From Marsupella aquatica (taxonomy: Eukaryota > Plantae > Marchantiophyta): DNA of 64,000 bases. The stretch lies in the NCBI GenBank assembly GCA_973895155.1, contig OZ316895.1, positions 990,435 to 1,054,434 of the forward strand, written 5' to 3'. Both the position numbers and the translations under genes were made by a program. Under the pieces are notes generated by a model. It had not been told where the DNA came from. It ran no database searches and was given only the letters and a program-made list of their open reading frames with translations. Shown here piece after piece: positions 1,587-61,233 of this stretch. Every line of letters starts with the position of its first letter. The first letter of the stretch is position 1.

Positions 1587-1587
1587 A

Positions 1588-4735: not shown

Positions 4736-4852
4736 TTAACCCTTGTGGTTTTTAGGGGGAGACCTGGTTTGGTGATTGTCTAGAACTTCCCGCTGAGGAT
4801 TCCATATGGTAGCATTTAGTCCAATCCCCAAGACAAGAGTGAAGGGGGAGTT

Positions 4853-9956: not shown

Positions 9957-10184
9957 CCCGATGTAACCTGATGGGCAAGTTGACGTCTTGCCTGGCACGG
10001 AAAACCATAAAACGGCGGCCCAAAACAAGGCAATTTGATGTATATTCGCATTGATTCCCCGGCAATTCCCGAGTCTTCCCACGGACCCCCCCCCGCCCCC
10101 CCCCCCTCCCCCCGACTCCCCCGGACCCTCCCGACCCAGCCCGGCTTTCCCGACCCCCAATATGCCGGGCAAGGCCAAACCAGG
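9957..10184. mobile_element. 228-bp non-autonomous hAT element (MITE), same family as 47420-56869
   Basis: Perfect 8-bp TSD GCCACCAC (9949-9956 and 10185-10192). Ends resemble those of the large hAT: TGATGGGCAAGTTGACGTCTTGCCTGGCACG vs TGACGGGCAACTTGTCGAGTTGCCCGGCACG, and TGCCGGGCAAGGCCAAACCAGG vs TGCCGGGCAAGTCCAAACCGGG. Confidence 0.8.
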
Positions 10185-18195: not shown

Positions 18196-19380
18196 TAACG
18201 TAATGGCTTGTTATGTTAAGAGTAGTATCAAATGTTGATCTTGCTTCTGCTATTTCTATTGAAAAAGAAACAATAGGAAATAACTCTCAAACTCAAGTTT
18301 TCTTATGCTTTACTTTGTAGCAAGCTCCTGAGATAGAGTATTAGTGTTTACATTTTCTTTATTTGTTAAGATTTGAGAAAACATTTACAAGTCAAATATG
18401 AAGCTTAGTCCAATTTTCTGGTCAAACAGTACACTAAGTTTAGATCTGAATATCAGAATGTTGAAAATTAGAACTTTTATACTTTCTTTTATTCACAAAT
18501 AATTATCACAAATCAATGTACTAGAGGTGAAATTTTGGAACTGCATAAATGTTTGATATTCGTTTATCAAAAAAAAATTATTAGCAATCACAACTGTTAA
18601 CCATATAGAGAGAAGAGAGAGAGATTAAACCTGTATTTCAAGTGTTGTAATAAAGTTGAGTTTGCTATTGATTGCCAAATAATTTGTAAACTTTCCCAAG
18701 CTTCTCTAGCAACCAAGAAGAAAATGTTCAACTCAAGAAAGGGTCAATGGGCTCAAGAATTGAATTGAAAGGACATTGTGCCACTTCACAACTAATAAAA
18801 TCCATATAAATTGTAATCATCAAACAAAACATGCAATCGTACAAACCTACCTGGTCACACAAAGAGAGCCCTACAAAAAATACTCCACTTGATGTCCGCC
18901 TCCAAGCTTGAATGTCTCATGTAAACTCTCCTCACACCTAGTGTGAAGTATGTTGTAAACCTCACTATAATCCTCCCTAAGCACACCAAAAGAGACATGA
19001 GTCAAACCTCCAATCAATCTGCACAAGCGCCTAAACATTGAATACAACATCATTAATTAATCTTCTAACCAACCTAATTTTCTTCAGTTTATTAATCTTT
19101 ACATAATGAAGAAAGTTACATTTAATAATAAGATAAATAACATCATAAAGTACAATTTATTACAGAATCTACATCATGCAAGGAAATGAGTGTTCATACT
19201 CCCATGAAAGTTGGCCTATCTATATAACCTCTCTCTCCACAACACTAGTGATGATTCTACACTTATGGTTTTTGTCTTTGTTTTCACTTGCCATGATATT
19301 AGGATAATTAATGATGAGAATTTTATTTTACTAGTATATATATTAACAAATTGAATCTTCAAACTAAGGTGCCTAAGATA

Positions 19381-21730
19381 TGGGAAACTATGCGCTTGTT
19401 GGGGATAAGCGGAACGTTCATAAAACTAGTCAAGGCACTATTACAACAGGCATCCTCAAGGACTTACGTGAATGGGTTGCTTTCCTCTGAGATTGGACTA
19501 TCGAGGGGTGTTAGGCAGGGTTGCCCTCTTTCACCTCTTTTATTTGTGACATCAACTCAGCCTTTAATGGATTTTATGGATGCTGAGATGGAGGCAGGGC
19601 GTTTAGATGGCATTCAAGTCTCAGCGGACTTGAGGATATGCTATAGGTTCTTTGCTGATGACTTGGGGATGTTCATCCCGGCCAAGCAGAGGAGTTTCCT
19701 GAAAGCAACAGCAGTGATACAGTGCTATGAATTGGCCACGGGGGCCAGACTGAATTTGCGTAAATCAATAGTCATCCCGCTAGCACTGTTGAGTATTCCA
19801 GCATGGTTACAAGAGACTGGATGTGTGATTAGCAAGAAAGGAGAGCTACAGAAATATCTGGGTGCTCCTTTGGGGGTGGACCTGAAAACGGAACAACTGC
19901 ATAGCTTTTGTCTGGATAAAATTGGGAAGAGGTTATCTTCTTGGTCGAACAAAATGCTTACCTTTACAGGACGCTCGCTTCTGATTAGGCACATACTTCA
20001 AGCAATTCCCATTTATCATACAATGTTCCTAAAGGCGTCTGCTGGTTTGGCTAGGAAAATGACTGCACTGTGCAGGGATTTTTTATGGGGTCATAACAAG
20101 GAGGGGGCAAGCGAGTTCCGCTGGTTTCCTGGGCATGTCTCTCACGTCCCAAGTTGGATGGCGGACTGGGGTTTAAAGACTTTCGCAGTCACTCGGATGC
20201 CGGACTGGGGTTTAAAGACTTTCGCAGTCACTCGGATGCGCTGTTATCAAAATGGTTTACCTGTGCAATGGACTACCCGGATATGGAATGGGCTAGAATG
20301 TTTGCTGAAAATCTGAATAGGATAACTATAAAGAAATGCGGAGGAATGGGTATACCTTCCGGGACAAAATGGTACTTGGCTGTCCCAGGGGACTCCACGG
20401 AATGGCATATACTGGGGATCTCTGGAAGGCCTGGGAATTGCTGCGAGCCAATCTGATTTTCTGTCCCTCTGAGCGGATACCTGGTAGATGGTCGATTTGT
20501 GATGTGCTCCGATGTTTAAAGGGAACGCAGGCGTGGAGCAGTGGTGACAGGGAAGCAGTGACAGTCCTTTGTGGAAGACTGGGCATCAGGAGCACGCAAG
20601 ATTTATGGTCAAGTGAAAGGAATGGATGGCGAGGGCTGGCAGGAAGGTGGCTACATCTACGTGGATTCTCAGAGGAACACTTAACACTTGGACGCAGATT
20701 CATTGGGCTGTTAGCTGACATCCCCCACTGTGAGTGGGGGGTGGAGCCTGGGCCGGAGAGCTGGTGTTGGGCGGACAACCCTACTGCTCTCAGGAGGTTC
20801 AGAGTGTCAAATAAGAGAGCATATCAGATGCTGCGAGAGGAGGTGAGCAATTTACAGAGTTTAAATAGGACATGGGGAATTGCAAGCACGGGCGACGAAT
20901 GGAGGGCAAGGTGGGCGGGGCTGTGGGGATCGGACTTGTCAAGGAGAGCTAAGATATTTATGTGGCGTGTAGTAGCATCGGGGCTCTTCACCGGGATTAG
21001 GGCGGTCAAAATTGGTAAAGGAAATGGAGAGTGCAAGCTATGTCCTGGAACACTGGAGACTATTTCACACTTGTTCATGACCTGTCAACATGCACAGCGC
21101 TGTTGGCAGCTCTGTGCACAAAGCTTTGAGGGCATATTTGCAGATTATTCTGGGGGGCTGCTTGGGATGATAAATTCTGCTGTGGGTAAGGAATATAGGA
21201 AGATAGTTAAAGTGATTGTCTTATACCAGATATTGTGGATGATCTGGTTGGGTCGAAATGAGCATATGTTTGTGATGGGCGGGGCCAGGAGGTTTGATAT
21301 GAGGTTCACTCTCTCGGAGGCGGTGGACCATGTCACTGCGGTCGGGCTTGCACTGCCAGCGAGCAACAGACGGACTAGGCTACTGAGAGTGAAAGAGATT
21401 ATCAATGCAGAGCAGCTCACTTGGTTGAGGCGTAGAGACTGCTGGATCACATCAGGATAGTGTAGGAATGATTGATGGAAGGGTAGTAGGCTGGATAGGT
21501 GGATGGATTGCAGTAGAATAAGTTTGTTAAGGCTGTTAGGATGGTCTCTGGTTCCGGATGGCTGGTAGGAATACTAGATACCGGTGCTGTTGGTAAGCGG
21601 AGTTCAGTTGTGTGTGTTGGGCTGGGATCTGTTGTGCTGGTATTGGTGGTGACTTTTCTGTTTGTTTCCCCCCGGCCATGGGGTTTGCATGGCCCACAAA
21701 AGTTATAAAAATTCTAAAAACGTTTAAAGG
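19381..21730 (+). mobile_element. 5'-truncated L1/Tx1-like LINE (RT C-terminus and zf-RVT), frameshifted
   Basis: RGVRQGCPLSP, FADD, KYLG, GGLGFKD and CxxC...HLFMTC motifs. 15-bp TSD AAGGTGCCTAAGATA at 19366-19380 and 21731-21745. A-rich 3' end. Internal 39-bp in-frame duplication at 20162-20239. Confidence 0.92.
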
Positions 21731-26249: not shown

Positions 26250-27290
26250 ATTAGGATCGAGCTCGGATTCTTTCTTCCGGAGGGAAGGGCGCACGAGGAT
26301 GGCTTCAGGCCAATCCAGTCATTCCTCATTTGCGGATATCTTCAGCAGAGTTCTCCACATCCATGCGTCTTTGTATGGGGCTGCCCCACCCACTTCTTGC
26401 AGGTTTACCTCCTTCTTGCACTTGTGGGAAGCCTTGTGATGCCACATGTGTTCATCTTCTTTGGTGCAGTTTGGGAGGTGAAACCATTATTGTCCACGAC
26501 GCTGTGCAAGATGCAACTGCTCGGGTTCTCTTTGGCTCTTTGGTATGCGTGCGGCGGGAGGTGGTACTCGAGTTACCTGGTCCTCCATCACAACGGTTAC
26601 GGGTGGATCTTACCATGGTCGGTGAGGGTCAACGTACTTTGGCGGATGTAGTGGTGACAAACTCATTGCGCCAAGACATCATTGGGATAGCAGCAACAAC
26701 GGTAGGGGCAGCAGCGTCACGTGCGGCAACAACGAAGCAGGCCAAATATGTTGCACGAGCTTCATCCGACAGCTTCCTCCCCCTTGCTCTGGAGCTATTC
26801 GGGCATCTTCATCCTCAGTTTGATGGGCTTCTTCGGCAAGCTGCACGAGATGTTCATGGCCGAATGGGCCCCACCGGACCCCCCGCTATCTGTTTTGACC
26901 ACGCACTTTCGCCACCGCATTTCAGTCACCTTACAACGTGCTCAAGTTCGGGCCATCTATTGTCGATCTCTTATAGTGGGTGCTAGTGTGCCTCCGCAGC
27001 GGCTAGCTCCCCTAGAGGATGTTCCAATCCCACTTGCCGATCTAGTTTTGACCCTTGATGTGGACTTTTTGCCTTATTTGCTAGAAATGATGAGGACCTC
27101 GGTCCGTTTGGGTTAGTTTTAGTCCCCCTTTCTTGGTTTTTAGGGGTTCCCTATTGCTCATTTCTAGTTCCTCTTTCTTGGTGTTTAGAGGTTCCCTTTT
27201 GCTCACTTCTTTTAAGTTTGGTTTTGTCCACTTCAGCCCTCTTTTGTTTGTTCATGTGTACTCTATTTGGTCCCTTTCTATAAAAAGTGT
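26250..27290 (+). mobile_element. 3' fragment of a CRE-like non-LTR retrotransposon (CCHC finger and restriction-like endonuclease), nested in Helitron 2
   Basis: RLCMGLPHP, CTCG..HLLWC, HDAV, RVDL, DVVVTN, K..KY, FLPLALELFG and FRHRISVTLQRAQ motifs. Confidence 0.8.
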
Positions 27291-29669
27291 GTATATATTT
27301 TTTATTTTTTTAGACATGAGTGAGGACAGAGTTCGTGACAGGGAAAATCTTTGGACAGAAGTGATGCTTTGGTCTTTGACACTATTTTGTATGGACAAAA
27401 AAGTTCTGTGTGGACAGAAAAGTAAACACTAGTATCCATGCATATTTATATGTTTTAACCTAGTCCATCCAAGTTTCATTTATCCATGGGGGCTTCATGG
27501 ACAACCTACCAGTCCATCTGGGCTATAAGTTCTATTTGGTACAAGGAGGGGAAAAGTCACTATAATACCATATGCTCTAAAAATTGTACATTTACAAACT
27601 CAAGACAAAATAAGAACAAATTTTAGCCATCAATTGAAAATTTGTTTTTCTGCAACTACTGGATTCATCCATACCCGTATTAATCTCAATTACCTCTGCC
27701 CAAGCTACCCATAGCCTACCCAAACTTAACAAAGATAACAAATTAATTTAATATTAATTAAAAACTAATTATTAAAATTGAGTTTTAAAGAATTGGATAT
27801 TTATTAGACTTAAAGTTTTGGGAAAAACTTGAGTATAAATAAAATATATACAATATTAATTTCTCTAAAAAATTATAATTATAAAACAATTTTTTTCTCA
27901 TTTGGTTGTGCTTGGACTCTATGCTGCGGTGACCATTATCTTGCGTTTCCAATTTCTATGTGCAATACACGAGTTGTTGAACAGCACCACAACAACTCTA
28001 CCTTGCCTTGACATATTTTTCTCATCTCGCCTCACATTGACATATTTCTCTCACCACGGCAATTTGTTTCTCACCCTCGACATCTTTTAGGTCCTTGATT
28101 TTTGTTTCTGTCCTCCATATAATTTCTCACCTGACTCGACATCTTTTTCTCACCTTCACATCTTTTCTCACATTGACATCTTATATAAGTTTTCTCATCT
28201 TAACATCTTTATCTCACCTCAACACCTTTCCCTCACCTTTGACTCGCATCTTTTCTCTCCTCAACATCTTTTCCTCATCTTTACATCTTTTTTTCACCTT
28301 GACTTCTTTACCTCACCTCAACATCTCTTTTTCTCATTGAATTGACATCTGTTTTCACCTTGATATCTGACCTTTTCCTCACTTTCACATTTTTATCTCA
28401 CCATAATATCTTTCTCTCATCTTCACATATTTTTCTCACATTGCCATCTTTTCTCTCCTTGACATATTTTTTGCTTGACTTTTTTTTTCAGTTGCTCGAC
28501 ATCTCTTTTTCTCATCAACATCTTTGTTCACCTTGACATCTTCTCCTCACCTTGACATCTTTCCTCTCCCTGGACATCTTTTTCTCACTTCAACTTATTT
28601 TTCTCACCGCACCATCGTTTGTGCAACTTTGTCTTAATGACATATTTTTTACTTAACGACAACTTTTCTCTTAACAACATCTTGGGCAATGTGATGTCTC
28701 TTTTCTTAGGTACATCTTGGGTGCCACAACATATTTTTTCTTAGCGATATCTTTTTTCTTAAGGACATCTTGGACGACACCACATCTTTTTTTTCTTAAC
28801 GGCATCTTAGGCGACACAACATCTTTTTTTCTTAACGACATCTTGGGCAACACAACATCTTTCTTCTTAATGACATCTTGGGGGACGTAACATCTTTTTT
28901 TCTTAACGACATCTTGGGTGACATAACATCTTTTTTTTCCTAATGATATCTTGGGCAACACAACATCTTAACGACATCGTTTTTCTTCACGACATCTTTT
29001 GTGCAACTCGCGGGTATTGAGCTAGTCTATACTATAATTTGCCATCAAAGTCTAGGGTTCATGACTTCCTTGGAGTGAAGCCATGGGCCATAATCTATCT
29101 AGTAACAGGAAATTTTTATAGCTAGACTCTAGCTGTTCATAGATACTACAAGGAGTCTTCCTGTGCATACTCGGTAGTACTCAGGCTGGTGGTTGTAATA
29201 ATGTCTAGTCTAAGAAGAGAGCCCTGAATCGTAAACAATAAACAAGTAAAAGAGGGAACAGTTTTTTCTGAAGAAAGGCAAGAGAGGCAACACAGTGGAC
29301 TCTCCTGGCTATGGTCTTCAGTTTTTCCTTTCTTTTCTCCCCTTCATTTGGTCTCACGCTTTTAGAATTTTGTCTCCTCCTTTGGCACATTTTGTCCTAT
29401 AAGAAAGGTTAAACAAGTACGTTGCCAAGGAAAGCCGACACTATGAGAGGATACCTTGTTTCCGTTTGATTCTGACAAGAGACTAAAGCTGACATGGACC
29501 ACCTCATTTGACCAGATACTCTCATGGACCACCCTCACCTGCATTGCCCACTTCAAAATGTTACATGTTACTGAGATAACACTTTTCTTTCATACAGTGC
29601 TCATCTTGTGGGTGTCACAATTGTACTTGGTCCATCTCAGTCTAACTCAAACTTTGCCAGTGCCTTCTA

Positions 29670-32320
29670 TTGGGGCAGGCGGGGGAGTTTTCTCGGGCCG
29701 CCCGCTCCTTGGTCCCCCTCTCCCCCTCTCCTCCTTCAGCCGAGACCGTTCTTGCCTTACGGTCTCTTCATCCCCCGGCTGCATCCGAGGTTCCTTGTTT
29801 TCTCGGGAGCTTTACCCCCAAGACCGAGTTCTCCCTATCCCGTGAGGTGTTCTCCTCTGTCTTCCTTCATCTACCCCGCCTATCTACGGGCGGGATTTCT
29901 GGGATGAGGTTCGAGCACCTACGCGATTGCTTTTGTCCCAACGACTCGGCATCTGGTTTTTCTGAGTTGTTCCAGGTCTGTGCCCATGTAGCGGGGGGCC
30001 GTATTCCTCCTGTGGTCGCTCGGCTTTTGGGGGCCCGTCGGCTTCTGGCTATGGCCAAAGAGACTGGGGGTGTCAGGCCCTTGGCCATCGGGGAGGTCTT
30101 GTTCCGCTTGGTGAGCTGTTGTGTTTGTCTGCAAACTCGGGCTCCCTTTTCATCACATTTTTTTCCTCACCAGTTTGGAGTGGCCACCCCCGGCGGTTGC
30201 GAGAGTGTGGTGCATGGCCTTCGTGCCATCTTGGATATCCACCCCGACTGGGCTGTCATTCAGGTGGATGTGGCTAACGCATTCAACTCTGTATCCCGTC
30301 GGGTCATGTTTGAGGAGTTGCGGGCCGCTGGAGGGGAGATCGCATCCCTCATCCCCTTTGCCCGGGCCTTCTATGGGGGCCCCGACCCCCCTGGTTTACC
30401 CTGACCATCTTGTTCCTGGGTCCTATGTGACCATCTCATCCGAGTCCGGGACTAGGCAGGGTGACCCCCTTGGTGGAGCGTTGTTTGCTATGGGGCACCT
30501 TCGTGCTATTCGTGCCTCTTTGGCTGCCTTCCCGGGTTGCATGTTTCCTTCTGTTGCGGATGACACTCACATTGTTGCCCCGGTCTCGCTTGTTGGGGAC
30601 GCCTTTGTGGACCAGCTTGCCCTCATTGGTCCTTCAGTTCAGCCTTCGAAGTGTGGGGTTTGGTCTCGTCTCCCCCTCCCCCACTCTTTCACCCCACCTC
30701 TTGGTATATCCATTCGGCTCGAGGGCATTAGAGTCCTTGGGGTGCCTTTCGGGGGAGCGGCCTTTGAGCAGGATTTTCTTCTAGCGGCCCTGTCCCAGGA
30801 CGTTTTGCATATTGACCAGTTGGCGTCCTTGGGGGATGCCCAGATCTCCTTTTTGATCCTGGTCCTATGTTTTGTTCGGCGTCCTTCCTATCTTCTCCGG
30901 ACAGTCCCTCCTACCGCGATGTTCCTGTCCTTACTCTCTTCATTTGACACCACTGTGATGAGAGTCTTTGGTCACCTCATTGGTCCGGGAGCCCTTGATG
31001 GAGAGGATGGTTCTTTTGCGGCTAGGTAGGCTGCGTTACCCCCATCAGGAGGTGGTATGGAGTGGCCTCGGCAGTGGACATTGCCCCTTGCGCGTTTCTT
31101 GGTAGTTGGGCGTAGGTGGCCCCTGCCCTGGCCTCACGTTTCATTGTGGACCTTCGGCCTATCCTCTCTGACTCGGTCATGGGAGTGGAGAACGGAGCTC
31201 TCCCTTTTCAGGTCCAGCTTCGTCATGCACGGTCATTATTGCCGGAGGACGTGCAGAGCGTGGTCCCTGCTTTCGAGGGAGTTGTTTTGGACAGCCCGGA
31301 TCGAGTCCAACAGGTGATTTCTGATCGCATGCACCGACACACCCTTTCCAGCATGCTTTCTGAGGCACCCTCGGATTTGGTACGGGCACGTCTTTTATCC
31401 GGTTCGGGCGCTGGTTCGGGGGCTTGGCTATCGGCGAGTCCTCTTTGGGCCCCCTTTCGTATGAGTTCTTTTATTTTTACCACATCCACGCGCCTTCGGT
31501 TGGGTCTTCCTCACCCCTGCCTCTTGGGTCAGCCCACTTGCGTCCGTGGAGCGCCCCTTGATGGGCAAGGCATTCACATTCTCAGGTGCGGTCATGGTAG
31601 TGAGAGGACTGCGACCCACGACAACATTCGGGACGTGGTGGCGGCCATTGCCCGTGATTCTGGTTACCATGTCATGATGGAGTAGAGACATGTGTTACCT
31701 CCACGGGATGGGGTTTCTGATCGTCGTCGGGCAGATCTGGTATTCTCTCGCGCTGGTGTTCGTGCCCTTGGGGATGTCGTTGTTGCTGATCCGACTAGTG
31801 GGGCCAACGTGGCTTCGGCAGCTCATGTACCAGGCCATGCCGCCGCGAGGGCAGCTCGGCTGAAGGAGGAGGCCTATGCTGTGCGGTACCCCGGGGACCT
31901 CTTCTATCCGTTTGCCGTGGAGGTCTTTGGGGCGTTACACCCATCCTTTGACCGTTTTCTTCGCTCTTGCGCAGTTCAGTACGTCGAGCGGAGGCCCTAT
32001 CCCCCCCGTGTCGGTCATCACTGCATTCTTTAGACAGAGGGTGTCTGTTGCGCTTCAGCGGGCACAGGCGTTCACTATTCTTCGTAGGGGGAGGTTGTTG
32101 GTCTTAGGGCCGCTAGTAGGATTCCTTTGCTTGACCCCCCCATGCAGTTCACACCAGAGCTTTACCAGGCTCTCCAGTTTGCTGATAGGTAGGCGTTTGG
32201 GTTCCTGTCTTTGGGTTTGCTTTTCTTGGCCCCTTGGTGGTCTCCCCCCTTGATTGGGTCTTTTGCGTGAGGGATCATGTCTCCCGGTTCGGCGCCCTCT
32301 GTTTTTTGGCCGTTTGATAT
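29670..32320 (+). mobile_element. CRE-like RLE non-LTR retrotransposon, 5'-truncated and degenerate (RT, zinc finger, RLE)
   Basis: GGISGMRFEHL, GGVRPLAIGE, PHQFGV, DVANAFNS, GTRQGDPLG, PSVADD, IRVLGVPFG, GAWL, RLRLGLP, HILRC, HDNI, RRADL, DVVVADP and FYPFAVEVFG motifs across frameshifted ORFs. Confidence 0.88.
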
Positions 32321-47186: not shown

Positions 47187-47519
47187 CAGTGAGAAGCTCC
47201 ATAATTCCTATTCGATCACGATAGCTCGCAGGGCAAAATCTTAATGAATCTCGGCTCAATGCAAACAGCACAATGCTCATGTCTGAACGTGATCCTTCGA
47301 GGGTTTTTTTAACTCGTTTTAAAAACCTATAAGTAGAGTAGTGCTGTACTGCCAAGTCCGCAATCTTTCCGTGCCGGAGACGAATGGGATTAGAAGAACG
47401 AGCGAAGGGACCACTTATGCCCGGTTTGATGTGACGGGCAACTTGTCGAGTTGCCCGGCACGTAAACTCGGCATTTGCCGGCCTGAAATGCTCTCATTTG
47501 ACGCATATTCGCCTTTATT

Positions 47520-48030
47520 CCCCGGTTCGGCCCGAACTTCTCCCGGCCCGGCCCGAACTCCTCCCGGCCTCTTCCCGGACCCGGCCCGCCCCCCCCCCCT
47601 ACCTCTCATCACCCGGCCCCGGCCCTACGCCGCGGCTTTACATCCCGGCCCGGCCCGGGTGGAGGGGGGCCCGGGTGGGGGGAGGAGGAGGCCCGGCCCG
47701 GGTGGGGGGAGGGAGGAGGCCCGGCCAGGGTGGAGGGGGGCCCGGGTGGGGGGGGAGGAGACCGGGTGGGGAGGAGGACGAGGCCCGGGTGGGGGGAGGG
47801 AGGAGGGCCGGCCCGGGTGGAGGGAGGCCCGGGGGGGAGGAGGCCCGGGTGGGGGGAGGCCCGGGTGGGGGGGAGGAGGGAGGCCCGGCCCGGGTGAAGG
47901 GAGGGGTGGGAGCAGGGAGGAGGGAGGCCCGGGTGGGGGGCAGGAGGGAGGCCCAGCCCGGGTGAAGGGAGGGGTGGGAGCTGGGAGCAGGGAGGCCCGG
48001 CCTGGGTTAAGGGAAGATAAGCCCGGGTTT
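47520..48030. repeat. Left subterminal G-rich array (GGCCCGGGTGGGGGGAGG-type units)
   Basis: Many GGCCCGG units separated by G-tracts. Confidence 0.85.
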
Positions 48031-48687
48031 TAGAGTTATGGATAAACTCAATTGAGATAAGCCATATCTGCTAATTTGGGGTTGTGATGATTTCTCGCCT
48101 ATCTAGTATTTCAACTCCGCTAAATATAGAACGTTTTTTCATTCTAAATTGTATAAAACTTTGAGTTTTTCTCATTAGACACACTTCACTAAAAGTAGAG
48201 CACTCTATGTAAAGAGATAGAAAAGACTTTTGTGCGCGCGTGCTTGGAGGTTTTACTCGGCATGTGGTAATCCGCATAATAATTTTCTTCTTATCCCTTA
48301 ACAATTTAGTGGTACTTGTGGGTATCGTGAAATAAATTTTGACAATGTTGACATTCATGTATGCATGTTTGGAGCTAAAGCTTGACATGTGATATTTTAC
48401 ATGATTATCACTAATTGTCTCATATGTTTTCACTATATCGATAAATGCTCATTAAATTATAGATATCACATACGTCGGATAGTAATGTTAACAACCAGAA
48501 AACAAAAGAGAACCGTTGTGCGCATGTTTGGAGTTTGACTCGACGTGTGATATTTCACAGTAGTTTTTTTTCTCGTTTTATTGTTGTTACTTCAAAAGAC
48601 TAACAAATAATCATTCAATTTTTATTAAGTGACTATGTTTAGCGACGTATAAGAAGACACTCTATGTGTAAAGTTCTTGTTTCGATC

Positions 48688-51461
48688 ATGTCTTCCGAAG
48701 AAGATGAGTCGGGCAACTCATCAGCTCATTCTACTCCTATTAGGCACGGTGGAAATCACAATCGAGATTGTAGTGCAAAATTTTCCCCAGTGTGGAAATA
48801 TTTTGAACGATGTGATACGCCATCAGCGTGTAATGATATTAATCGTATATATTGAAGATGCAAATTTTGTAAGAAATATACAACGCATCATGCAACACGA
48901 GCAAAAGCATATTTGTTGGGAAACATACACAAAGGAGATGTGCCACCTTGCACAGGCTTGTATGGAGTTGTTGACTTAAATGACATCAATAGAATGTACA
49001 ATGTCATAAAGGTTGACCCATCCATAAAGTACAAACGAAGTGATGGAAGTCATGTTTTGTTATCCATGAGAGGTCGTAGGTCATATAACCCATCTTCCAA
49101 TTTGCAAGCATCAACTCGAGACTCAAATTTTGTTGACCTCGATGAGGATGGAAATATGAGTCATCGAAGTAGAGCATCAAATTTTGCAAACCCAATCATG
49201 GATGCTTATCAAATTCCAAATAGAGCTCATTTGGATAAGCTGTGGGCCAAAGCTTTTTATTCAAGTGGTATTTCGTTCAATGTGTCGGAGAATCCTTTCT
49301 TCCGTGAAGCAGTCACAGAAACCTCGAAAGGGATTGTAAATGGATATTCTCTTCCGGGTATGCGAAATTTGAGAATGAAATTATTGGAGGAGGCTAGAGT
49401 TGATCTTACAAAGGACATGACAAAAACAATGAAGGAGGCAAAACCTTTTGGATATTCCCTTTCATCCGATGGATGGGAAAATATCCGAAGGGAACCTTTG
49501 ATGAATGTCATGTTGTTGAGTTCAAAAGAAGATTTCTTTTTGGATAGTTGGAACGCTGCACAAGCCGACAAGAAAGATGGGAAGTATCTTGGTGACATGT
49601 GGTTAAAATACATAGATGACATTGGCGCCGATCACATCATACAAATTGTTACCGATGGGGCGCCTGCAAATCATGTAACAGGTGAAGAGATAGTCATGAA
49701 AAAATATCCGCATGTGACATGGAGTTGGTGTGCTACCCACGTTTTTAATTTGTTGCTAGAAGACATGTGTGGCCACAAGAATGTTGTGCTAGATGAGCGG
49801 AAAAAAAATCCATTCAAAATTATTTTTAAGCACTTGAGATGGATAGTTAAAGCAGTTATATCATCACAAAAGTTGTCTGCAATATTTGTGAGGAAATTTG
49901 GTGACAGGAAGTTGTTAAATCCAAATGCAACGAGATTTGCAACAATTTTTTTAATGGCGCAGAGAGCATTGGAGCTAAGAGGAGCTTTACAACAAATGGT
50001 CATTGATGATAAGTGGCAATCCTATCGTGATCGCCTGCCAGTTCGACCAAAGTCACAGGGGCATATGACGAGGGGAAAGGCAGACGAACTTAAATCGTGG
50101 ATACAACAAGATACATTTTGGGCTCAAGTAAAATCTACAGTTGCTTTTTTCCTGCCGTTGGTGAAGATGTTGCGAGAATTCGATGGAGTTTCACCACAGT
50201 CTCCTTGGCTATATTGGAGCTTGAAAAAAAGAATAGCTAAACTGGAGGCGAGCATGGAGGATTGTACATTAGTAACAGATTACTTAAAATCCAAAGATAA
50301 TGAAAGTGTATATGGATCGACAAAAATCACTTACTACTGATTTCATGTTAGCAGCAACATATTTGAATCCTCAATTTTTCTTCGATGAAGATGAAGATGT
50401 GGCAGGAAATGCAGAACTGTATAGAGGCTTCAATGATTACGTTCGTAGATATGCAGAACACAAGGTGAAGGCAGGAATCAACCATGATCGAGATGTGACG
50501 ACACTTATTTCTGACATCCAAATGCAGGCATTTGAGGCTAAAAAAATTGCCTTCATCGATTACAATTAGAGGAGCACAATCGAATATTGGGAAATTAAGT
50601 CCAGGAGAGTGGTGGCATTTGTATGGAGCTGATTACGCGGAGCTAAGATTGATGGCGAGAAGAATCACGCATCAACAAATGTGTGCATCTTCATGCGAAC
50701 GAAATTGGAGTTCGTACGGCTTTATCCATTCAAAAAGCCGTAGTAGGTTGACCAATGATCGGGCAAAAGACTTGGTTTTTGTATTCACAAATTCGAGGGT
50801 GCAAAAAGGGCTCACGAAGATGAGAAACCCTCATACGTCTATGTATAGACGATATGATGAAAGAACAACAACAAATAATGGCCCGAGGCCTACTTCCATA
50901 GAAGGATGTCACACCGAACAACATGGTGTTACATGTGTGGCTCTTGGAGAGGATGATGTGGAGGATTTTGATACAATTGATGATGCAGATGAGGCTTTGC
51001 AAGGATTATCATTACTCAATGATAGTGATATGTTGACTTGTATTCCACCAGATACTGAAATAAGTGATGTCGGAGAATGGGAAGATGAAATGGATTTAAT
51101 GATGTTCCCTACAATCGATGAGTCTCAAATTCAGGATGACGAGGACTACTCATTTGATGCAAACTTTGTAGTGCCTTCCCAACCAAACCCATCCTTCACA
51201 TACCCAACATTGAATCTACAAAATGATGTCCAAGCAAGTACTTCGTACTTATTTCAACGACAAGGTGCTACATCGAAGCTCTGTCCTGAGAGAACAACAC
51301 CAACTTTGTTTGCGCAACCTGATGATGCACAGTGGGGACAACATGTTTCTCCAACACAAAATATGTATGAAAGGCAGAACATGACAAATCCATACACATC
51401 AAGCATACATGCCCGTGTTGGGGCATTTCAAGAATATCATAGCGCAGATCCGGTCCAATAG
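48688..51461 (+). pseudogene. hAT transposase (BED finger, DUF659-type DDE core, hAT dimerisation domain, acidic tail); one stop and two frameshifts
   Basis: SPVWKYF...(TGA)RCKFC BED finger, in frame with 48913-50340. Core motifs SDGWEN, QIVTDGA, WCATHVFNLLLED and ATRFAT. Then AATYLNP, EWWHLYG and SASS-like CASSCERNWS..FIHSKSRSRL. Confidence 0.93.
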
Positions 51462-51654
51462 ATGACAAGACAATTTCAATTTGATCGACAGTTGCAAGAA
51501 AATGAGAACAATAACACAAGGCACTTTTTGTCACAACCTTGATATCTGTTTAGGTATTACATGCTAGTACTATACGACAAACTATGATATACTATGCCGG
51601 ATTGTGCATGTCCTATGCAATAAAATATGCTATACTAAACATTGTGTGTGCAAT

Positions 51655-53622
51655 CTACTCATTTGGGTTCTCATTGTCTTGCGCTTCTGCTTTCACCTCT
51701 GCCAGTTGCTGACGACGACGATGGCGACGAATAGATCGCTGCATGTTTTGCTCATCTGTTGTTGGTCGATTGGCCATGGCATATTCCTTCCACTGTTAGA
51801 ATCTACCACTGAATAGCAAATTGTCAAAGTCACCATCTGACAAGTTGTATTCATTAACTGTGAAGTTGTCAATGGGCCTTGAATCGATCTGTGTCATTGC
51901 AATACTCTCTTGAGTCATGTCTTCAGTGTCTTGTTGTGTCTCCATTGGTGGCATTTGTTTCAACAAACCTCATTGCTCATACTCTCGTTCATGAAATGGT
52001 TTCCGACACCAACATTTTTGGCTCTTCTTTATCCACCGAAACAAGCAAGCATGATGCCATAAGTGACCGCATATTCCCAAAATGGAAATAGATTCAAGAC
52101 CCCATGGATACAAGCACCAAGTACATCTTCCATCCTTTTCTCGAACAAATTGGGCCATACTTTCATCGGTCTTCCACTTGTCAAAAAATTTCTCTACATC
52201 TTCTGGATCCTCCTCCACATCCGAAAAAAGATGAGATTCTCCCGTAGGATCAATCATTTGCAAGTTCATATAATTGTAGTTCTTGCATCTTGATTTTTCC
52301 TTGTCTGATTGTCCATCCACCTCAGCAGTGTTCATTTGCTCGATCTCCTCTTGCAGATTGCTTATGATCACCTCTTGTGATGCAACCTGATTCTTCAAAT
52401 CCTGAATGACTCTATCTGCCTCTTGAACTTGTTTCATTTGACTACATTGACCATCCTTTTGGGCAAGTTGTTTGTTGAGCTTTGCGATCTCCTCCATCTT
52501 GTCGTACAGTTGCACCTTGTATTCCTTCACCTCCGAAGTAGTCACACTTTGAATGAGCATTTTTTCCATTGCTTTCATCTTCAAAACATTATCTTGCAAC
52601 TTTGACTTATAGTAGTCAATGCTGCCAGCTTCACAAAGGTCAAGACAAAACTTTGTGCGGAGATTGTTCTCGATCAAATGACCAATCTCTGTGCCCAAAC
52701 TCTTGCACACAATCTCCATGCTCAATGATTCTTTCTTTGGATCCAAAACACCAGTGAACTTTCCTGGTAAATTATTACTTGTAGATGCTGCAATGTTTGA
52801 TGTTTTATCCACATGTTTTGGTGTGCTGAAACTTTCAGATTTAGTGAAGAGTCGTTCTAGTGCAGTCGGCTTATCTTTCTGATGTGCATGAATATCTTGC
52901 ACATCATGTATCTTTCTTTTTGACCCTTTGTTGGTTGCTTGACTCGACATATCTTTTGTAGTATTTTTGTTGTTCTTGAAACCTATAATGTCCAGGACAG
53001 ACTGATGCACAGAGTGAGTCATCTTGCCATCTTCTGTTTCCCAACGGTAATCCACCTTCCACTTGAGAATAAATTCAACAATTAGGAGTCAGAGAAAAGG
53101 AGGATAAACCGAGCTTGTTTTGCCTTGCACTTTCTTTGGAGCATACTCTCGAAATCTTTGCTGCCAATGCTTGCCAATTTCCACATGTGTTACCTTGGAC
53201 ATTGTGTACTTCTCTTGCATCCAAGACCTTGTGGCCCATAAATTTTCATCATCAAAAATAATTTTCATCCATTTTTGGAACTCCACACGTGGCATCAATA
53301 TCTCCAATTCTTTGGCATTGATGGGCCATTCATTGTGAGGAGGTTTCACATTTGGCATTGTGATATTCCATTCAACATCCTTGGTGTCCTCATCCATTTT
53401 GGTTATGCTTTGCCCTGCATGATTGCTACTCATTCCAATGTCCTCGTCTATGGGTTGAGAATCTTCTTCAGCGTATTGATCCTGAGACCAAAGGTGTAAA
53501 TCCTGAGCAGGTTGCAAATATAAATATGGAATCTTTTTAGGTTTTTTCTCCTCGTCGGATTCCAAATCCCATTTTTCCATCCTTGCAGATTCTACAATAA
53601 CAAAAACATTTTTAGCATTCAT
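51655..53622 (-). pseudogene. hAT cargo gene 2: unknown N-terminal domain, coiled coil and RING-H2 (putative E3 ligase), ~655 codons with three in-frame stops
   Basis: ORFs 53622-53089 and 53055-51970 and the downstream codons to TAG at 51655 are all in one frame (1968 nt). RING-H2: CTWC-x14-CGHLWHHACLFRW-x6-CWC. Heptad-rich central region. Confidence 0.8.
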
Positions 53623-53764
53623 TCACCATACACCCTTCAAGATAAAATTGATAACAAAATACAATGAAGAAAAATGAGTAATACATTTAATTCATATGAC
53701 ATGATTAAATAGATAATAGTTCATGACATCTATCATTGTCATTCACGATGAAACTATAAAATCC

Positions 53765-55422
53765 CTAATCTCTTAGATAAGGACTATTGTGCTGAACTAA
53801 TCTACAATCTTGGAATGTCCTCATCATTCTCAAACTCCAATGAACACAATCCATTATTTTTTTGACATCAATGGCCATCATGTCACGTATCATAATATCC
53901 AATTTAGGGCCATGCTCTCTAGCATTCCAACCTCTATTCAAATATCGTGTCATTGGGTCATTCCATCCCAATTTTCTGTGAGTAATGTCTCAAAGACATT
54001 GCCCAAAGCATATATGTCAGTTGCTTGACTGTACACTGCTGGATCGGAATGAACTAGCTCAGACGCCAATTGTGGATATTGTTTTTGATATGCAACTGCT
54101 TTCTCTGTAGGGGTGGGCCACATTCAATTTTGTGGTAATGTGCATTGTGACTTGTGTTTGGACAACCCAAAATTACATATTCTTACATAAACTCTAATTG
54201 CCAAATCATCCTCGTGATCAAAGTGAAGAAGGATGTTCCCAAAATGAAGATCACAATGGAAACGGTCGTGTGCATGCAAATATTGCAAGGTCTCCAATAG
54301 AGCCATAGCAATCCCCAAACGATGTTCCAAAAAGAGTTTCTTTTCGGATATGAATGTCACATCAACCTCAGAAGTGGATTGTGTCTTCCCTTTGCTCTTA
54401 CTCCATTTTCCACACTTATCTATGAAGCTTCCCAAGTCACCTCCATTGTAATGGTCATAGATAAGTTTCGGTGGATCTTCGATAGTTATTGCGAAGGCCC
54501 CAATTATTCCTTTGTGATTCAAACCTCCCATGAGCACTTCTTGTAAGGCATCTGTTCGTCTCTTGTGCCGGTCTCCATCCTTAAATCGTTTTACAACCAG
54601 TGTTGCATTTCGAGGAATCAATGGGCAATCCAATATATGACATATGAACACATGTCCTTGGATGCCGCTTCCAATGCGATGCAAATTCGATACTTGCTCC
54701 CTCCTCAAGAAATGAATACTCTTGACTATGGGAACAACTCGTGATGGACGCGTTCCTCTATTTGCAACCTCCACGTCAATCTCTCCAAACTGCATGACCT
54801 TGCTCGCATATTTGACATTACTCTCCGATTTGGCCATTGCTAACTTTTTGCTCCATTTAGCTAGAAAATCTCTTCTATGTGTGTATAGCCCAGGAACTCC
54901 AAGCATGACGGTCCCAGCCTCATCCAAATTGGATTCCAACTTGTCCCAAAGATTTACCGCAAAGTTCAATGCCAAATGTTCAACAAATCCACCCGGCTTC
55001 TCAAAATTATTTATTAAGGCAGCAATTTCATCTCAGGTCATGTCCTCTTCTTTCTCCACAGTCTCACGCATGCAACGTCCCATGTCATTTAAAAGGTTTT
55101 TGTAACCCTCTGCTCCATGCATAGCATACTTCCTCTCAAAGCCATCCTGCTCATACTGTGCTGGCAAAGTGTAGGGATATAAAATCTTTTTCCAAATTGC
55201 AACTAACACATGTTGCCTTCTCTCTTTCAATGCAACACCAATTGCTCCTCCTCTATGTTTCCGTTTCCCTAAGGTTTTGCCATGTTTACAAATTTCTAAG
55301 GTTTTGTGAGCATTCCTTAGAGCATTGAGGGCATGAGGATCTGGTTGGTATCCCTCGTTTAGCATGGTCTTCATTGCCTCAAAAAGTTTCATATACTCTA
55401 CACTCACATTTGCAGCGGCCAT
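53765..55422 (-). pseudogene. hAT cargo gene 1: protein kinase with a ~250-aa unknown N-terminus; two in-frame stops and one frameshift
   Basis: IGSGIQG (Gly loop), VVKRF, alphaC LQE, HCDLHFGNILL (catalytic loop) and ICNFG (DFG position). After the TGA at 54124 the frame continues with YPQLASEL (APE position) and TDIYALG. The stop at 55033 is in frame with 54975. Confidence 0.85.
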
Positions 55423-56199
55423 GTTCTCAAGTAACCACAACAAGTTGTAGGACAAAGAATAGGCACTTACGGAGTGTGTTGGCTGCTTGCCGAGGGTATG
55501 GATGATGCAAGTACAATAAAGCTGGATCAAGAATCCTGAAATATCATTTCACACTTTGTGTTGGTACCAATAATACCCAAGCAATGAAATTTTAATATTT
55601 GTTCAATTTTTTATTCATTTATTTAGTACTTTGAAAGTAACAACGATGAGGGGGAAAGACAACTATGTGAAATACCACATGCCAAGCCGAAACTCCAAGC
55701 ATGCGCACAAAAGATGTCTTTTCCTTCAAGTTGTTACATTCCTATTCCAATCTATGTGAAACCTATAGTTTAGATGTCATTTGTAAATGTTGTGAAAATA
55801 TTTACAAGGAATCAAGATATCCATGCAGAGTACCACATGCCGAGCGGAAACTCCAAGCATGCGTACATGAAAATCTCTATCCTAGAAAATACTCCACTCA
55901 ATTCACAAATCACACTAAACTGTTAAGGCGATAATAGGTTCTCTCATACGAAATACCACATGCCAAGCATAAGCTCCAAGCATGCGCATACGTGAGAACA
56001 CTAATATCCCTCCAAATTAAAACTAAATGTTAAAGTCATACATGGCAAAGCATAGCAAAAAAAGACCAAAAACAATTCAAAAACTAGTGAACTAAACTCA
56101 AAACTAAGCAAAACATAAGCAAAAGCAAGAAAAACTTACCAAAGGCCTCTCCTACAAAACAAGCAAACTTAGTAATGAAAAGTTAGTAATGAGAGAAAG

Positions 56200-56790
56200 T
56201 GAGGAGACCTCCTCACTTTATAGGCCCGATCCCGGTCTGCCCCCCCTCCCCACCTCGCGAGCCGACCCCGGGTGGCCGAGCCCGATCCCCCCCGATGGCT
56301 GCCCTCCTCTCGCGCGACCTAACCCTAAAGTCCCCCCCGGCCCGGCCCGGCCCGGCCCGGTCGCTCATGGTGGGCCCGGGCCGGGGGAGCTTTAGGGACC
56401 GGGGCGGGGAATTAGGGACCGGGGCGGGGGGGCGGCTTTAGGGTCCGGGCCGGGAGGGGGGGGCTTTAGGGTCGGGCCGGGAGGGGGGGGTCCGGGTCGG
56501 GAGGGGGGGCTTTAGGGTCCGGGCCGGGAGGGCTGTAGGGTCCGGGGCCGGTGGGGGGGAGGGGGGCTTTAGGGTCTGGGCCAGGGCCTTTAGGGTCCGG
56601 GCCGGGAGGGCTTTAGGGTCCGGGGGGGGGGGCTTTACAGTCCGGGCTGGAAGGGTGAAGGGTCCGGGCCGGGGGAGGTTTAGGGTCCGGGGTCGGGAGG
56701 ATGAAGGATCCGGGGTCTGGGCCGGGGGGTTTAGGGTCCGGGGCCGGGAGGGAAGAGGACCGGGAGGGAAGAGGCCGGGACCGGATGATG
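56200..56790. repeat. Right subterminal G-rich array with interspersed plant telomeric units (TTTAGGG-TCCGGGCCGGG)
   Basis: Around ten TTTAGGG units alternate with (T/A)CCGGGCCGG and G-tracts. Confidence 0.85.
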
Positions 56791-58836
56791 TCGACCGGGA
56801 GAGACCGGGTGTTGGCTTGCCGGTTGACGGCCTTAAAACGGCCTATTTGCCGGGCAAGTCCAAACCGGGCACTGATGTCTGATGGAGCCAACCTGACGCT
56901 TTCACACACGGTAAACGTAATCAAATGTCATATCCAGTGTATTTTTTTAAGGTTTTTTACTTTTAGCCCGTGTGGTGAATGTTTGCTTCTCTAAGGGAGT
57001 AGACTCTAGAAATATTCTCTGTCAGATTTCACAGAATTAAATTGTGACTCTCAGATATCCCTAGATTTAAGGAGGACCGTTAGATTCTTGCTAACGGGGT
57101 CCATGATTTGGGGGAAGAGTGGCTAATGGTGTCAGGAAAATGTACCAAATATTAGCCAAAAGTGATGAAAGTTTTTTGGGGAGGTGGAATTTGGCTAAAA
57201 TTTGCACTTAAAAAATAAGCTGGTCATATCCTTACTACGTCAACAAAGTAAGCATCGACTAAAGGCTGTTAGCAAAGGAACAAAGGTTATTACCGGAGTG
57301 GCGTCCCCTTAATTGCACATCAAAATGTGATCATATGACATGTATTAATAATTAATAATTATATCACTCTATACATATTTTGTTTAATTGTATATCAAAA
57401 TGTGATTTTTTACCATGTATTATGTCACTCCTTACCATGATAAACTCAGATGTTTTGTTAAAATCACCAAATGTTATTTACACTCTATAATATGCTAGAC
57501 TGCCAAATCTTAATCTTAACTTTAGTCTGCTTACAAAAGATGAAAAAAAGCGGGAGTGATTTTGTACCATTAGTTATACAATGTGTATAACTATGATAGT
57601 TGTATTTATAAAAGAAAGATACAAGGGACAACAATGGGAGACATGAGCATGTATATGATAATCATAGGTATTTTAATAATTATATAAGTTACATGGAAAG
57701 GCTGCCCATGGGAGGGAGGCACATTGGAAAGTGTGTTCTCATCGCCAACTTCTCTTTAAAAAAACATCTCATTAAAATATTGTTTTTGAGAACTATATTA
57801 TATCTGGAAAGTCGCACCATAGGGAGGGGCGCGTGGGCGCTTGAAGAGGGATGGAATTTATCCACAAATTTTAATTCAGGTGGGGCAAATTCCTTCCCGG
57901 CGTGTAATTATATATGATTTAAGAATGAACTTTGGAGGTTAGATTTGTGTAATTTAATAATTATCTGCAATTTCAAAATGGGTGGGAAGCATACAGGAAT
58001 AATCCTATGTGTTTTTATTTCTGTTTTTTTAATTATAAGAAATGAGAAATTGGGTGTTCCCAAAAGAATGGTTTGGCAGGTTCTAAAAACATGGAATTTT
58101 TTTACTCTTCATTTCATTTTGTTGGGAGAAGGTGATAATTTTCTTTTTGGATGTGCAGGATTTTTTTTTACATTTTGTATTTGCCCACAATTTTGCAATG
58201 TATAGTGTTGGAGAAAGCTACGGTAGTTTTGGGTGGGGGATGGGGACAAGAGCAGAAACCTCCATCGCCGCACTACTTCTACCTCCCCACTCACAACTCA
58301 CTTTTTTCACATTTCTCATCAATTTTGTGCTTCAACAACTTACATAAAGTCTGTTTGGTAGCACTATTTTAGTGTCAATCATGTAAGTTCTTCTTGAATA
58401 ACACTCCTCTTGGTGCAATGCACTAGAATCTGACTCATGTTTCTTATCACTCTCTTTTTGGACCAATTTTTTTGTGTCCATTGTGTCCTTCATTTCTGCA
58501 TTATACTTCCACCTCTCCTTCCTCCCTTGCACAACTCATGCTTTAATTTTTTATTTCAGGCAAGCTTGGTTTTGTTGGATTTCAATTTTGTGAAGGGCGT
58601 TCGTGACAAGCAAGTAAAACAACCTTGGATGAAAAACTCATGGTTTTACTGAAAAAACTCATGGTTTTACTGATCGGGGATCAATCTGATCAACCTGAAT
58701 GAGCACAGAATTGACATTAAACGACTGACATTGAAAGGGAATATCCCATCAACCCAAATGACGAAAGATTCTTCTAAAATCTGCTATCGTTACAGATCTA
58801 CTCTAGACCATCGAGATACCAGATCCTAAAGGAGCT

Positions 58837-61233
58837 TCACTTCGTGGTCTCTTTTGGTAGCTCATTCTCCTTAGCGTCCTGTTTTGCTTGGACAATCTTG
58901 ATTGTGACGGTACAGTTTTGGAATAAATTGTTTGCTATGCTATTACCCATAGTCACAGTGGAAGTCCCTCTCAGCTGTTTGGCTAAAGTTGAATTTGCTT
59001 GCACCTCATTCTCCCAATTCACTACTTCAAAATCTAGTAGAAAGTACTTGCTTCTCGCATACTATTCTCCCACATTGACCACAAAAGTATTCAAACCAGA
59101 CTCCTGTCAAAAACTCAAAAAATAAGTCAGGAACGTCATCCATTAAAGTAACAAAGTGCTAATTCATTAATAGCTATGGATGCTTCACCATCTGCAATTA
59201 TTGTCCAAGACAGCAGGGCCAAAACAAAGAGTCAACCACACACATTGTACCTGTACTGGTTTTGGTGTTATGGACAATTGCATCGCAGACTTCTCACTCA
59301 ATCCAAGGTGTTGTGCTCAGTATCCTTGCATCTCAGGTTTTCCAGTCACAAGAGTTGTTAGCGGATTCAAGCTACACGAAGATCCCACAATCTGTTCCTA
59401 CACAAATTTCCTGCTGACCTCTGTTAACGTAGGATTGTAATTCAACATTGGATTAGAATCCACCAAAGTGGCAGCTTCCATGGATCTCAGTGTTTGCGTC
59501 CGATCGTACCTCTGGTACCCACTAACAGTATGGTGACCAGAAATCAATCTGCCAATTTCATTGGGAATGCCTTTGGCTGCAATTCTAGTAATTAGTGTGG
59601 CTCTCCCCATTCGATTGCTAAAAGAGTCTCCTGGCAAACCAACCAAGGTCGACATGCTCTTGAGCCACTTGGTCGTTCTATTTTTGGCCACCTTATGGAC
59701 CCTGCTATACCATATATTTCCAGTTGGGTTAGTTATTGGCCCCAAGAACAAGTCAGGTTTTGTCCCCTCTGTCAGCTCAGGCAAATGGCGCAAGTATTGC
59801 CTGACCGTCATCAAGAAATCTGGCTTGTAAGTGTGATACACACTTCTGAACTGTTCCTCATTGTCGCGAGCAAGAGTATTTGCATTATTTTTACTTTGTC
59901 TCTCCTGGAAACTGCATGAAGAGCAAAGCTTGTTAGAAGAGTTAACTTCAAAGAAAACAAACTCACAGGGAACGCCAAAGGACAAGTATAACCAGTTGCA
60001 AACTCAAATGAAAAATAGCTTGAGAGATGGCGTCTGGCCACTGATAATAGATATGACAGAAATGATAATGCCCCTAACCAGACTGAATTTTGCTCAGCTG
60101 CAAGGCCCTACATGAGGCTAATCAAGAAGAAGCTTATTAATTTCTTCTGACTGGTGACCAGTCTTACCGTACATAGTCCTTTCCCTCTTTATCGACCCGA
60201 ATACTAATGTCATCCCCATGCAGATCCCACACTTCTTGGTCTCCACAAATGCCCATCCCGACAAGGACAAAAAACGTCAATTGCTTTTGGCAGCCATGAC
60301 TAAAATTGATTTGATGATCCATGTTGGCCAGGATTGCCTTCTCCATTTCTTCAATAAGAATACTCACCTGCAAGAAGAGATATATGGGAATCATCATACG
60401 CTAACGAGGAAAAACGAGATCAGCAAAAATTGAAATCGACACCTAAAAACTCACTTTCTTCCTCTTCTTATTGGCTCCATCTTTGGCACTCTTCTTGATT
60501 GCTGCTTGCAACATCATTTGAGTTCTGGTAAATGATGGATGAGAATTGACATTAAAGCCTTTCTCAACAAGATCCCTTCCCCTCTCAAAGCCCGCAGGTT
60601 GCTTGCACGTCTTATCAGCCGATTGTAGCCATTCATAAGATTCATGAATGAGGCTGATGGGAGTGGTGTGCCATCGTATTCCACAGCACGAGTATAATAT
60701 GTTGCTCAATAGCTCATCAAGTTGTCTTAGTGGCTAATCACCGAGCGAGATAGTCATATCCCAATTCAAGGCACTGCACAAGGGGTCTGCCCATTTGGCA
60801 GCCCATCGGTCATTCTGCTCTTTTGGAAGCTTTTTGATTGCTAGACCCGCATCAGCCAATGTGAATCAGGAATTACCCTCAGTCTCGGAAGTAACCTGTA
60901 TCTTGACTAACATTGGCTTGCTTACCCCCTGCTCGTGCCTTCATTATGAGGCACAATTGCATCAGAAGTGGTCTTAGCTCCTGGACCTTCACTAGAGCAT
61001 TGCCCACCTACAACATTGTCAAAAATGTAAGATAACCTTGGTAAAGCTTTACTGGTCGATAAGCTCCTTCGTTGGCCATTCCATAGGCAACTCAAGATCT
61101 TCCAGATAGCACATCTTGACATCATCCTCACTTCAGTCCTCTCCCCCAACAGACATTGCCTCATCTCCACTTCCCTCTCCCATCTTGGATTGGCCTGGCC
61201 GTGCCAGCAAATGAGCAGAATTAGAGATAACAA
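58837..61233 (-). pseudogene. Crypton-like (DUF3504-type) tyrosine recombinase gene with introns, degenerate
   Basis: N-terminal DRWAAKW...LDELLSNIL; GMGI(C)GDQE at the catalytic Arg position; FQERQSKNN; FSNRMGRAT (HxxR position); ISGH; YQRY; C-terminal LFQNCTVTI. Likely GT-AG introns near 60455-60369 and 60167-~59915. 5' boundary uncertain. Confidence 0.72.

Follow-up and report, generated by a model that had tools for sequence, protein, structure and literature searches.

A hAT transposon of the liverwort Marsupella aquatica that very likely carries a stable protein kinase and RING-type cargo

In textbook accounts, hAT elements are cut-and-paste transposons with a single gene. In a 64,000-nucleotide stretch of the liverwort Marsupella aquatica (contig OZ316895.1, positions 990,435 to 1,054,434 of the forward strand; here called the window), positions 47420-56869 hold a hAT element of the DUF659 type, a single unit of 9.45 kb in which a transposase faces a protein kinase gene (cargo gene 1) and a coiled-coil/RING gene (cargo gene 2). 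This raises the question of whether the two additional genes are a regular part of the element and, if so, what they might do for it. An earlier note, made from the sequence of the window, had proposed a hAT lineage with a stable, once-intact kinase and RING cassette. The core of that proposal was supported, and we consider it very likely that a stable kinase and RING cargo belongs to a multicopy hAT family. Its fixity did not hold throughout, as the position of gene 2 is taken by a DUF6729 gene in a related sequence, L002.

Structure and ends of the element

The arrangement described in the earlier note, a transposase on the plus strand and two long, convergent cargo open reading frames (ORFs) on the minus strand, was present. 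The features are listed by window coordinates and strand.

47412..47419, unstranded: left target-site duplication (TSD), CACTTATG, identical to 56870-56877 at 7 of 8 positions
47420..47428, plus: left terminal inverted repeat (TIR), CCCGGTTTG, 9 identical bases
47500..48030, unstranded: left GC-rich subterminal repeat array of CCCGG-rich units (GC 0.75; repeat families D1 and D4)
48236..48603, plus: upstream block, likely promoter or leader, containing three ~45-bp units; 85 bp separate it from the transposase ATG
48688..51461, plus: hAT transposase of the DUF659 type, broken (Pfam)
53580 (or 53622) to 51655, minus: cargo gene 2, a coiled-coil/RING ORF of 641 to 655 codons, broken (ORF, Pfam)
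53592..53610, minus: pyrimidine tract plus TGTAG, 11 nt ahead of the gene 2 ATG and predicted to be a 3' splice site
55422-53763, minus: cargo gene 1, a protein kinase of about 552 codons, broken (Pfam)
55465..55470, minus: GTAAGT, 43 nt ahead of the kinase ATG, possibly a 5' splice site
55623..55987, minus: second upstream block, inward facing, 201 bp before the kinase ATG
56220..56800, unstranded: right GC-rich subterminal repeat array of CTTTAGGGTCCGGG-type units (GC 0.74; families D2 and D3)
56861..56869, minus: right TIR, 9 bases identical to the left end
56870..56877, unstranded: right TSD, CACTGATG, a 7-of-8 match to CACTTATG
9957..10184, plus: 228-bp nonautonomous relative whose ends can be aligned with those of the element; flanked by an 8-bp duplication without mismatch (GCCACCAC) and sitting in a short tandem repeat

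The TIR has a single occurrence on the plus strand of the window, at 47420, and one on the minus strand, at 56861. The ends are real, because the 228-bp relative aligns with the element (blastn E values of 1e-5 and 4e-4; its left end aligns at 9957), because a unique, identical contig from sequencing run X3 spans the left flank up to 47447, the point at which the depth jumps, and because GC-rich arrays lie at both ends. The earlier description of these termini as clean was generous, since the TIR is only 9 bp long and the TSD matches at 7 of 8 positions. An 8-bp TSD (7/8 for the element, 8/8 for the small relative), short TIRs, and subterminal repeats at both ends are hAT features, as in PMC10368747. 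The TSD, together with the many copies described below, indicates past movement of the element. We rejected an extension of the TIR to a CAGTG start, which fits the right end only and does not fit the 228-bp relative. Neither an internal TIR nor an internal duplication was found within the element, which argues that the cargo is not a separate nested transposon. Judged by depth and loose ends, another high-copy repeat starts about 70 bp to the right of the element, at 56940-57400.

The cargo recurs in other copies and is under purifying selection

If the kinase and gene 2 are regular parts of the element, other copies should carry them. Six of the seven sequencing runs listed contained part of the interior, and depth was taken from the four runs that held about half of its words; these represent organisms A and B and come from two studies, and one of them may derive from the sample that yielded the window. 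The interior was covered in 30 of 30 bins in all four runs. Depth here is summed contig depth rather than copy number, and by this measure the bins of the three genes (48655-55323) ranged from 338 to 2,951 in run X1 against 45.7 for the unique left flank, from 117 to 549 against 14.6 in X3, and from 1,626 to 38,236 against 58.6 in X4. In bins of the transposase, gene 2, and the kinase alike, depth thus exceeded that of the left flank by a factor of about 7 to several hundred. Two X1 contigs bridge the tails of the transposase and the RING gene, one of 1,310 bp (record 1; depth, 406) and one of 1,364 bp (record 2; depth, 30), at roughly 83 to 90% identity. A contig from X5, which with X6 represents organism C, joins the same two tails at 96% identity and a depth of 2; the deep matches in organism C were confined to the RING finger region. 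At the JGI locus L003, a kinase is followed by gene 2 with order and spacing kept, at 52% and 40% identity, respectively. The cargo is therefore carried by other copies of the family.

The ratio of nonsynonymous to synonymous substitution (dN/dS), computed by the NG86 method from distant pairs near synonymous saturation, was 0.09 to 0.37 in five of six kinase pairs, the sixth being saturated, and 0.30 for gene 2. These values lie well below 1 and show purifying selection on the cargo. Both cargo genes lack coding introns and are colinear with uninterrupted homologs, and their closest homologs are intronless, multicopy proteins rather than an ordinary host gene.

The transposase and the two cargo genes

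Pfam analysis of the transposase gave DUF659 (E 7e-28; 97.6 bits against a cutoff of 34.7) and Dimer_Tnp_hAT (E 1e-9; 38.4 bits against 21.4). The motifs SSDGW, VTDGA, CATH, and CERNW were located, and D 49468, D 49654, the CxxH at 49729-49740, and E 50697 are assigned as putative functional residues from hAT motifs. The N-terminal BED finger is degenerate: its W, CxxC, and last C are kept, Tyr replaces His, a stop interrupts it, and no Pfam match was obtained on the pieces. The protein has a long, acidic tail rich in Ser and Thr. The frame is broken by a stop at 48853 and by frameshifts near 50290 and 50546-51. No sequence match of the transposase to solved structures was found.

The kinase gene matched Pkinase (E 2e-10) and PK_Tyr_Ser-Thr (E 5e-15). 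Its product comprises an N-terminal region of about 230 residues with a basic patch, followed by a kinase domain with the catalytic loop HCDLHFGN. In the window copy, the gene has stops at 55035 and 54126 and a frameshift near 53954, and its DFG motif has become NFG. Uninterrupted homologs of 540 to 553 amino acids (50 to 56% identity) are present in public assemblies, among them P0085 (CAM6081650.1) of Calypogeia fissa. The Gly loop, beta-3 Lys, helix-C Glu, HxDxxxxN, and DFG are all kept in P0001 to P0003, P0085, and L002, so that these homologs have, as far as motifs can tell, what an active kinase requires. A library-wide search returned 71 matches, 20 of them at E<1e-10, with a sharp drop thereafter to distant kinases. 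Ten matches were looked up; three clusters belong to C. fissa (eight proteins on seven contigs) and one to Riccia fluitans. Most kinase-family entries of C. fissa are fragments, and some copies are annotated as genes. In a phylogenetic tree, the window kinase grouped with two C. fissa proteins, and the L002 kinase was sister to the other ten close relatives (support, 94/94); the root is a midpoint root, and no direction of exchange is claimed from it. A profile of the kinase matched none of 123 candidate stretches in viral_contigs and none of 55 candidates in prokaryote genomes, and in a metagenome scan 3 of 304 candidates passed, all from one assembly and each too short for a hAT transposase. 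Matches in the ESM Atlas were generic, the best PDB match (Roco4; E 5e-9) was too weak for subfamily assignment, and an NCBIfam scan gave nothing at cutoff. Beyond these relatives, unusual kinases with WNGG, HNDLHxxN, and DWG motifs (P0034 to P0069), R. fluitans being among their sources, fall into several long-branched groups.

Gene 2 encodes a conserved N-terminal domain (53373-53040), a basic patch, a coiled coil (about 52610-52340), a RING-H2-like finger (52125-52006), and a conserved C-terminal tail. The eight ligands of the finger, spaced C-x2-C-x14-C-x-H-x2-H-x2-C-x10-C-x-C, are conserved in P0008, P0010, and P0011. Intact homologs of 543 to 643 amino acids (41 to 59% identity), including a 643-amino-acid RING protein, were found in public assemblies; another homolog, P0009, comes from C. 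fissa, and its annotation stops before the RING finger. The N-terminal domain had no usable match in the ESM Atlas, and an AlphaFold model of the protein was unusable (pLDDT 37). Basic, KRKR-like patches are conserved in both the kinase and the gene 2 families, and no signal peptide or membrane segment was seen by eye in the cargo proteins.

Gene 2 has stops at 53091, 51972, and 51798 in the window copy. The earlier note had pointed out that the stops of the element are each one C>T or G>A change from a sense codon. That argument proves nothing alone, because every stop codon is one such step from sense. Comparison with other sequences bears it out: other copies or homologs have sense codons (Arg or Gln) at 55035, 51972, and 51798, and Arg in homologs aligns to 53091 and, for most, to 54126. 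The decay extends beyond the stops that had been recognized and includes three frameshifts, which other copies lack, and the change of DFG to NFG, nearly all contigs of other copies reading Asp at 54174. Of the 39 differences scored among the read differences listed, 28 were C>T or G>A on the side of the window, the pattern expected for decay of methylated DNA. With its stops, frameshifts, and NFG, the window copy is dead.

Duplicated upstream blocks and candidate splice sites

The two upstream blocks are inverted duplicates of one another (70.7% identity over 376 bp; E 4e-33), and the first (48236-48603) is colinear with positions 1 to 340 of L002. Their motif has four matches in the window against 0.02 expected, and none was obtained in 100 shuffles. 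As one such block precedes the transposase and the other precedes the kinase, both halves are tied into one element. In both blocks, every ~45-bp unit finishes with TG-GTA, a sequence similar to a splice donor, and instead of binding proteins the units may serve as small leader exons.

The TGTAG-11 nt-ATG spacing at the start of gene 2 is identical in the window, L003, and L001, within a spacer that has otherwise diverged, and GTAAG occurs in L002 at the place aligned with the GTAAGT before the kinase ATG. This conserved acceptor-like site and the GTAAG before the kinase ATG suggest that splicing past the kinase is probably how gene 2 is produced. At positions 1480-1561 of L001, a gene start follows the kinase with the same TGTAG-11 nt-ATG arrangement; it is too short to identify and resembles the start of P0011.

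A related kinase beside a DUF6729 gene

L002 is 5.8 kb long with both ends missing. It has the upstream block and an intact kinase, and the second slot is occupied by a DUF6729 gene (E 2e-11) at 2527-5822, with a probable intron; homologs of this gene include one from Platanthera zijinensis. It has no similarity to the hAT transposase. In its second part, ADHHH, DKCC, DxxH, and GS..(N/L)E are conserved in most aligned rows. A structural model (pLDDT 52) resembled ISCth4, Hermes, and integrases weakly in its fold, in no case significantly: the ISCth4 transposase stood at Foldseek ranks 2, 3, 5, and 6 (E 0.5 to 0.7), and a match to it at Z 5.8 (rmsd 6.3, 133 residues aligned) was tied with short helical matches. 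Fold matches of the model to toxin domains were rejected, as they covered 81 aligned residues at 5% identity in a common helical bundle. Taken together, the motifs and the model point to the DUF6729 gene probably being a DDE transposase of a group without a name so far. No paper naming DUF6729 was found in the openly searchable literature.

Either the kinase cassette may also serve another type of transposon or its second slot may be exchangeable. The broadest extension, in which liverwort transposons share a portable cassette, made up of a conserved promoter block, a kinase family of its own, and an alternatively spliced second slot, that has moved between hAT and DUF6729 DDE elements and the kinase and RING pair is the first phosphorylate-and-degrade system directed against silencing, we regard as doubtful.

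Relation to known systems

Within the openly searchable literature, no published hAT element was found to carry a kinase or RING gene as cargo. The element resembles hAT DUF659 elements in its DUF659 and dimerization domains, 8-bp TSD, short TIRs, and subterminal repeats and differs from them in its length of 9.45 kb, its two extra conserved genes, and the inverted block before both transcription units. We take DUF659-type transposases to be linked to Tag1-like plant elements. The TIRs of Ac/Hobo elements commonly start with (C/T)A(A/G)NG, which is a tendency rather than a definition, whereas the ends here begin with CCCGG. Maize MuDR also has convergent transposase and accessory genes (mudrA and mudrB) that start from duplicated, inward-facing end sequences. 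Its promoters, however, lie in long TIRs, whereas here the TIRs are short, the block is some 800 bp inward of them, and the transposase belongs to the hAT type. Pack-MULEs and other Pack-type elements share the presence of nontransposase coding sequence between transposon ends; in contrast, here the transposase is present, and whole, intronless genes under selection have been kept over about 50% protein divergence. No close host parent gene of the cargo was found in protein searches.

Transposon-encoded antisilencing proteins have precedent in VANC of VANDAL and TnpA of Spm, which are sequence-specific regulators according to the available passages of PMC5735166 and 10.64898/2026.08.24.746577; the words "kinase" and "ubiquitin" are absent from those passages of the latter. 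The likeness is that in each case a DNA transposon has repeated noncoding motifs and conserved genes dedicated to accessory functions. VANDAL and Spm belong to other superfamilies, the transposase here being hAT and not Mutator type, and the cargo here is a kinase and a RING protein known from sequence. KRMA kinases are cargo of nematode Mavericks and are exchanged between elements (10.1101/2022.07.12.499685), and in both cases a kinase family travels as DNA transposon cargo. KRMA resembles HipA/CtkA and has a ubiquitin-like domain according to that text, whereas the kinase here has a conventional Pkinase/TKL-like fold and resides in a cut-and-paste plant element with a RING partner.

A selected kinase and RING pair in a hAT lineage would imply an interaction between element and host via phosphorylation and ubiquitin, unlike that of the DNA-binding VANDAL and Spm proteins. 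Some "bryophyte-specific" kinase and RING gene families are, on this evidence, transposon cargo, and DUF6729 genes are flagged as a probable transposase group without a name. Intact natural copies such as P0085 and P0011 allow a direct search for the target of the cargo in a liverwort model.

Possible functions of the cargo

We tentatively favor a model, held at somewhat less than even confidence, in which the kinase and the RING protein phosphorylate and then ubiquitinate a host silencing or chromatin factor. The two inward-facing blocks would drive convergent transcription, one of the transposase and the other of the cargo. An unspliced cargo transcript would yield the kinase, and splicing of the leader to the acceptor 11 nt before the ATG would yield gene 2. 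Both proteins would enter the nucleus via their conserved basic patches, where phosphorylation by the kinase and ubiquitination by the RING protein would act on a chromatin or silencing protein, making the pair a nonhomologous counterpart of VANC or TnpA.

Several points weigh against this model or the family on which it builds. Outside the window, the three genes were never found together on a single molecule, and no record covers the element from end to end; their linkage is read from junctions and depth. The dN/dS values, besides their closeness to saturation, report constraint and not whose benefit it serves. Gene 2, termed a RING-H2 protein in the earlier note, has the eight ligands, but the finger scores below the Pfam cutoffs (21 to 26 bits) in P0008, P0011, and the window alike, the window finger falling below every one of them (best, 21.4 against 27.3 bits), and its last ligand pair is C-x-C rather than C-x2-C. 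Since C-W-C is common to P0008, P0010, and P0011, the latter is a family trait and not decay. VANC and TnpA act on the DNA of their own element, and a DNA-binding domain was found in neither cargo protein. Finally, L002 replaces gene 2 by the DUF6729 gene, indicating that the kinase does not always need a RING partner.

The family and its cargo could be just as described and yet serve the transposase itself, with the kinase and RING protein switching it on or timing it and then clearing it, which would limit damage to the host. The shared upstream block would coexpress transposase and cargo, and the acidic, Ser/Thr-rich tail of the transposase could take such marks. We nevertheless think this unlikely: the L002 kinase adjoins an unrelated DUF6729 gene, which a host target fits better than a single transposase does, and most hAT elements presumably work with a transposase alone. 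The same L002 arrangement, a kinase without a RING gene, speaks against a poison-antidote drive in which the kinase would harm any cells or spores from which the element is lost, with gene 2 removing or blocking the kinase. The tight kinase-gene 2 tandem, kept in L003 across 50% divergence, would suit such a system, and in nematode Mavericks, whose cargo comprises KRMA kinases and proteases, one such cargo turned into a toxin (10.1101/2022.07.12.499685). Copies such as that in the window lose both genes, and many dispersed copies would gain little from one-locus drive; we consider drive quite unlikely.

Two further explanations detach the cargo from transposition. It may be kept for the benefit of the host, or host-useful source copies may have been picked up repeatedly, with nothing gained for transposition. 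Purifying selection is silent on who benefits, and the C. fissa annotation treats some copies as genes. Yet about 20 relatives at E<1e-10 include no intron-containing or single-copy parent, the C. fissa entries are mostly fragments, and the window cargo has decayed like the window transposase; this explanation is very unlikely in our estimation. Least probable is that the right half (block, kinase, and gene 2) rides along passively after a fusion with the hAT element, having come from a mobile unit of its own or from one arm of a different transposon. L002, where another, transposase-like gene follows the same block and kinase, would be expected of such a unit, as would the restriction of deep matches in organism C to the RING finger part. 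Everything lies within a single pair of ends and a single TSD, however, and no internal TIR or duplication was found; the same block also precedes the hAT transposase, and the transposase-RING junction recurs in diverged copies.

Other features of the window

At 11548-13593 on the minus strand lies an uninterrupted, 681-codon short-chain dehydrogenase frame (adh_short, E 4e-39) that stands out for its lack of introns; we take it to resemble the chlorophyll b reductase NYC1. Decayed Ty1/copia-like integrase and RNase H frames were recognized by eye at 1582-4735 (plus), and a 432-codon frame without a Pfam match at 6706-8004 (minus) is likely a retroelement-associated ORF. Inspection by eye also revealed LINE-like reverse transcriptase and zinc finger frames at 19318-21460 (plus) and, at 26255-26986 and 29646-31685 (plus), two related reverse transcriptase-like fragments of another non-LTR or DIRS-like type. 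A frame at 59398-60003 (minus), without a Pfam match, has tyrosine recombinase-like motifs and is possibly Crypton-like.

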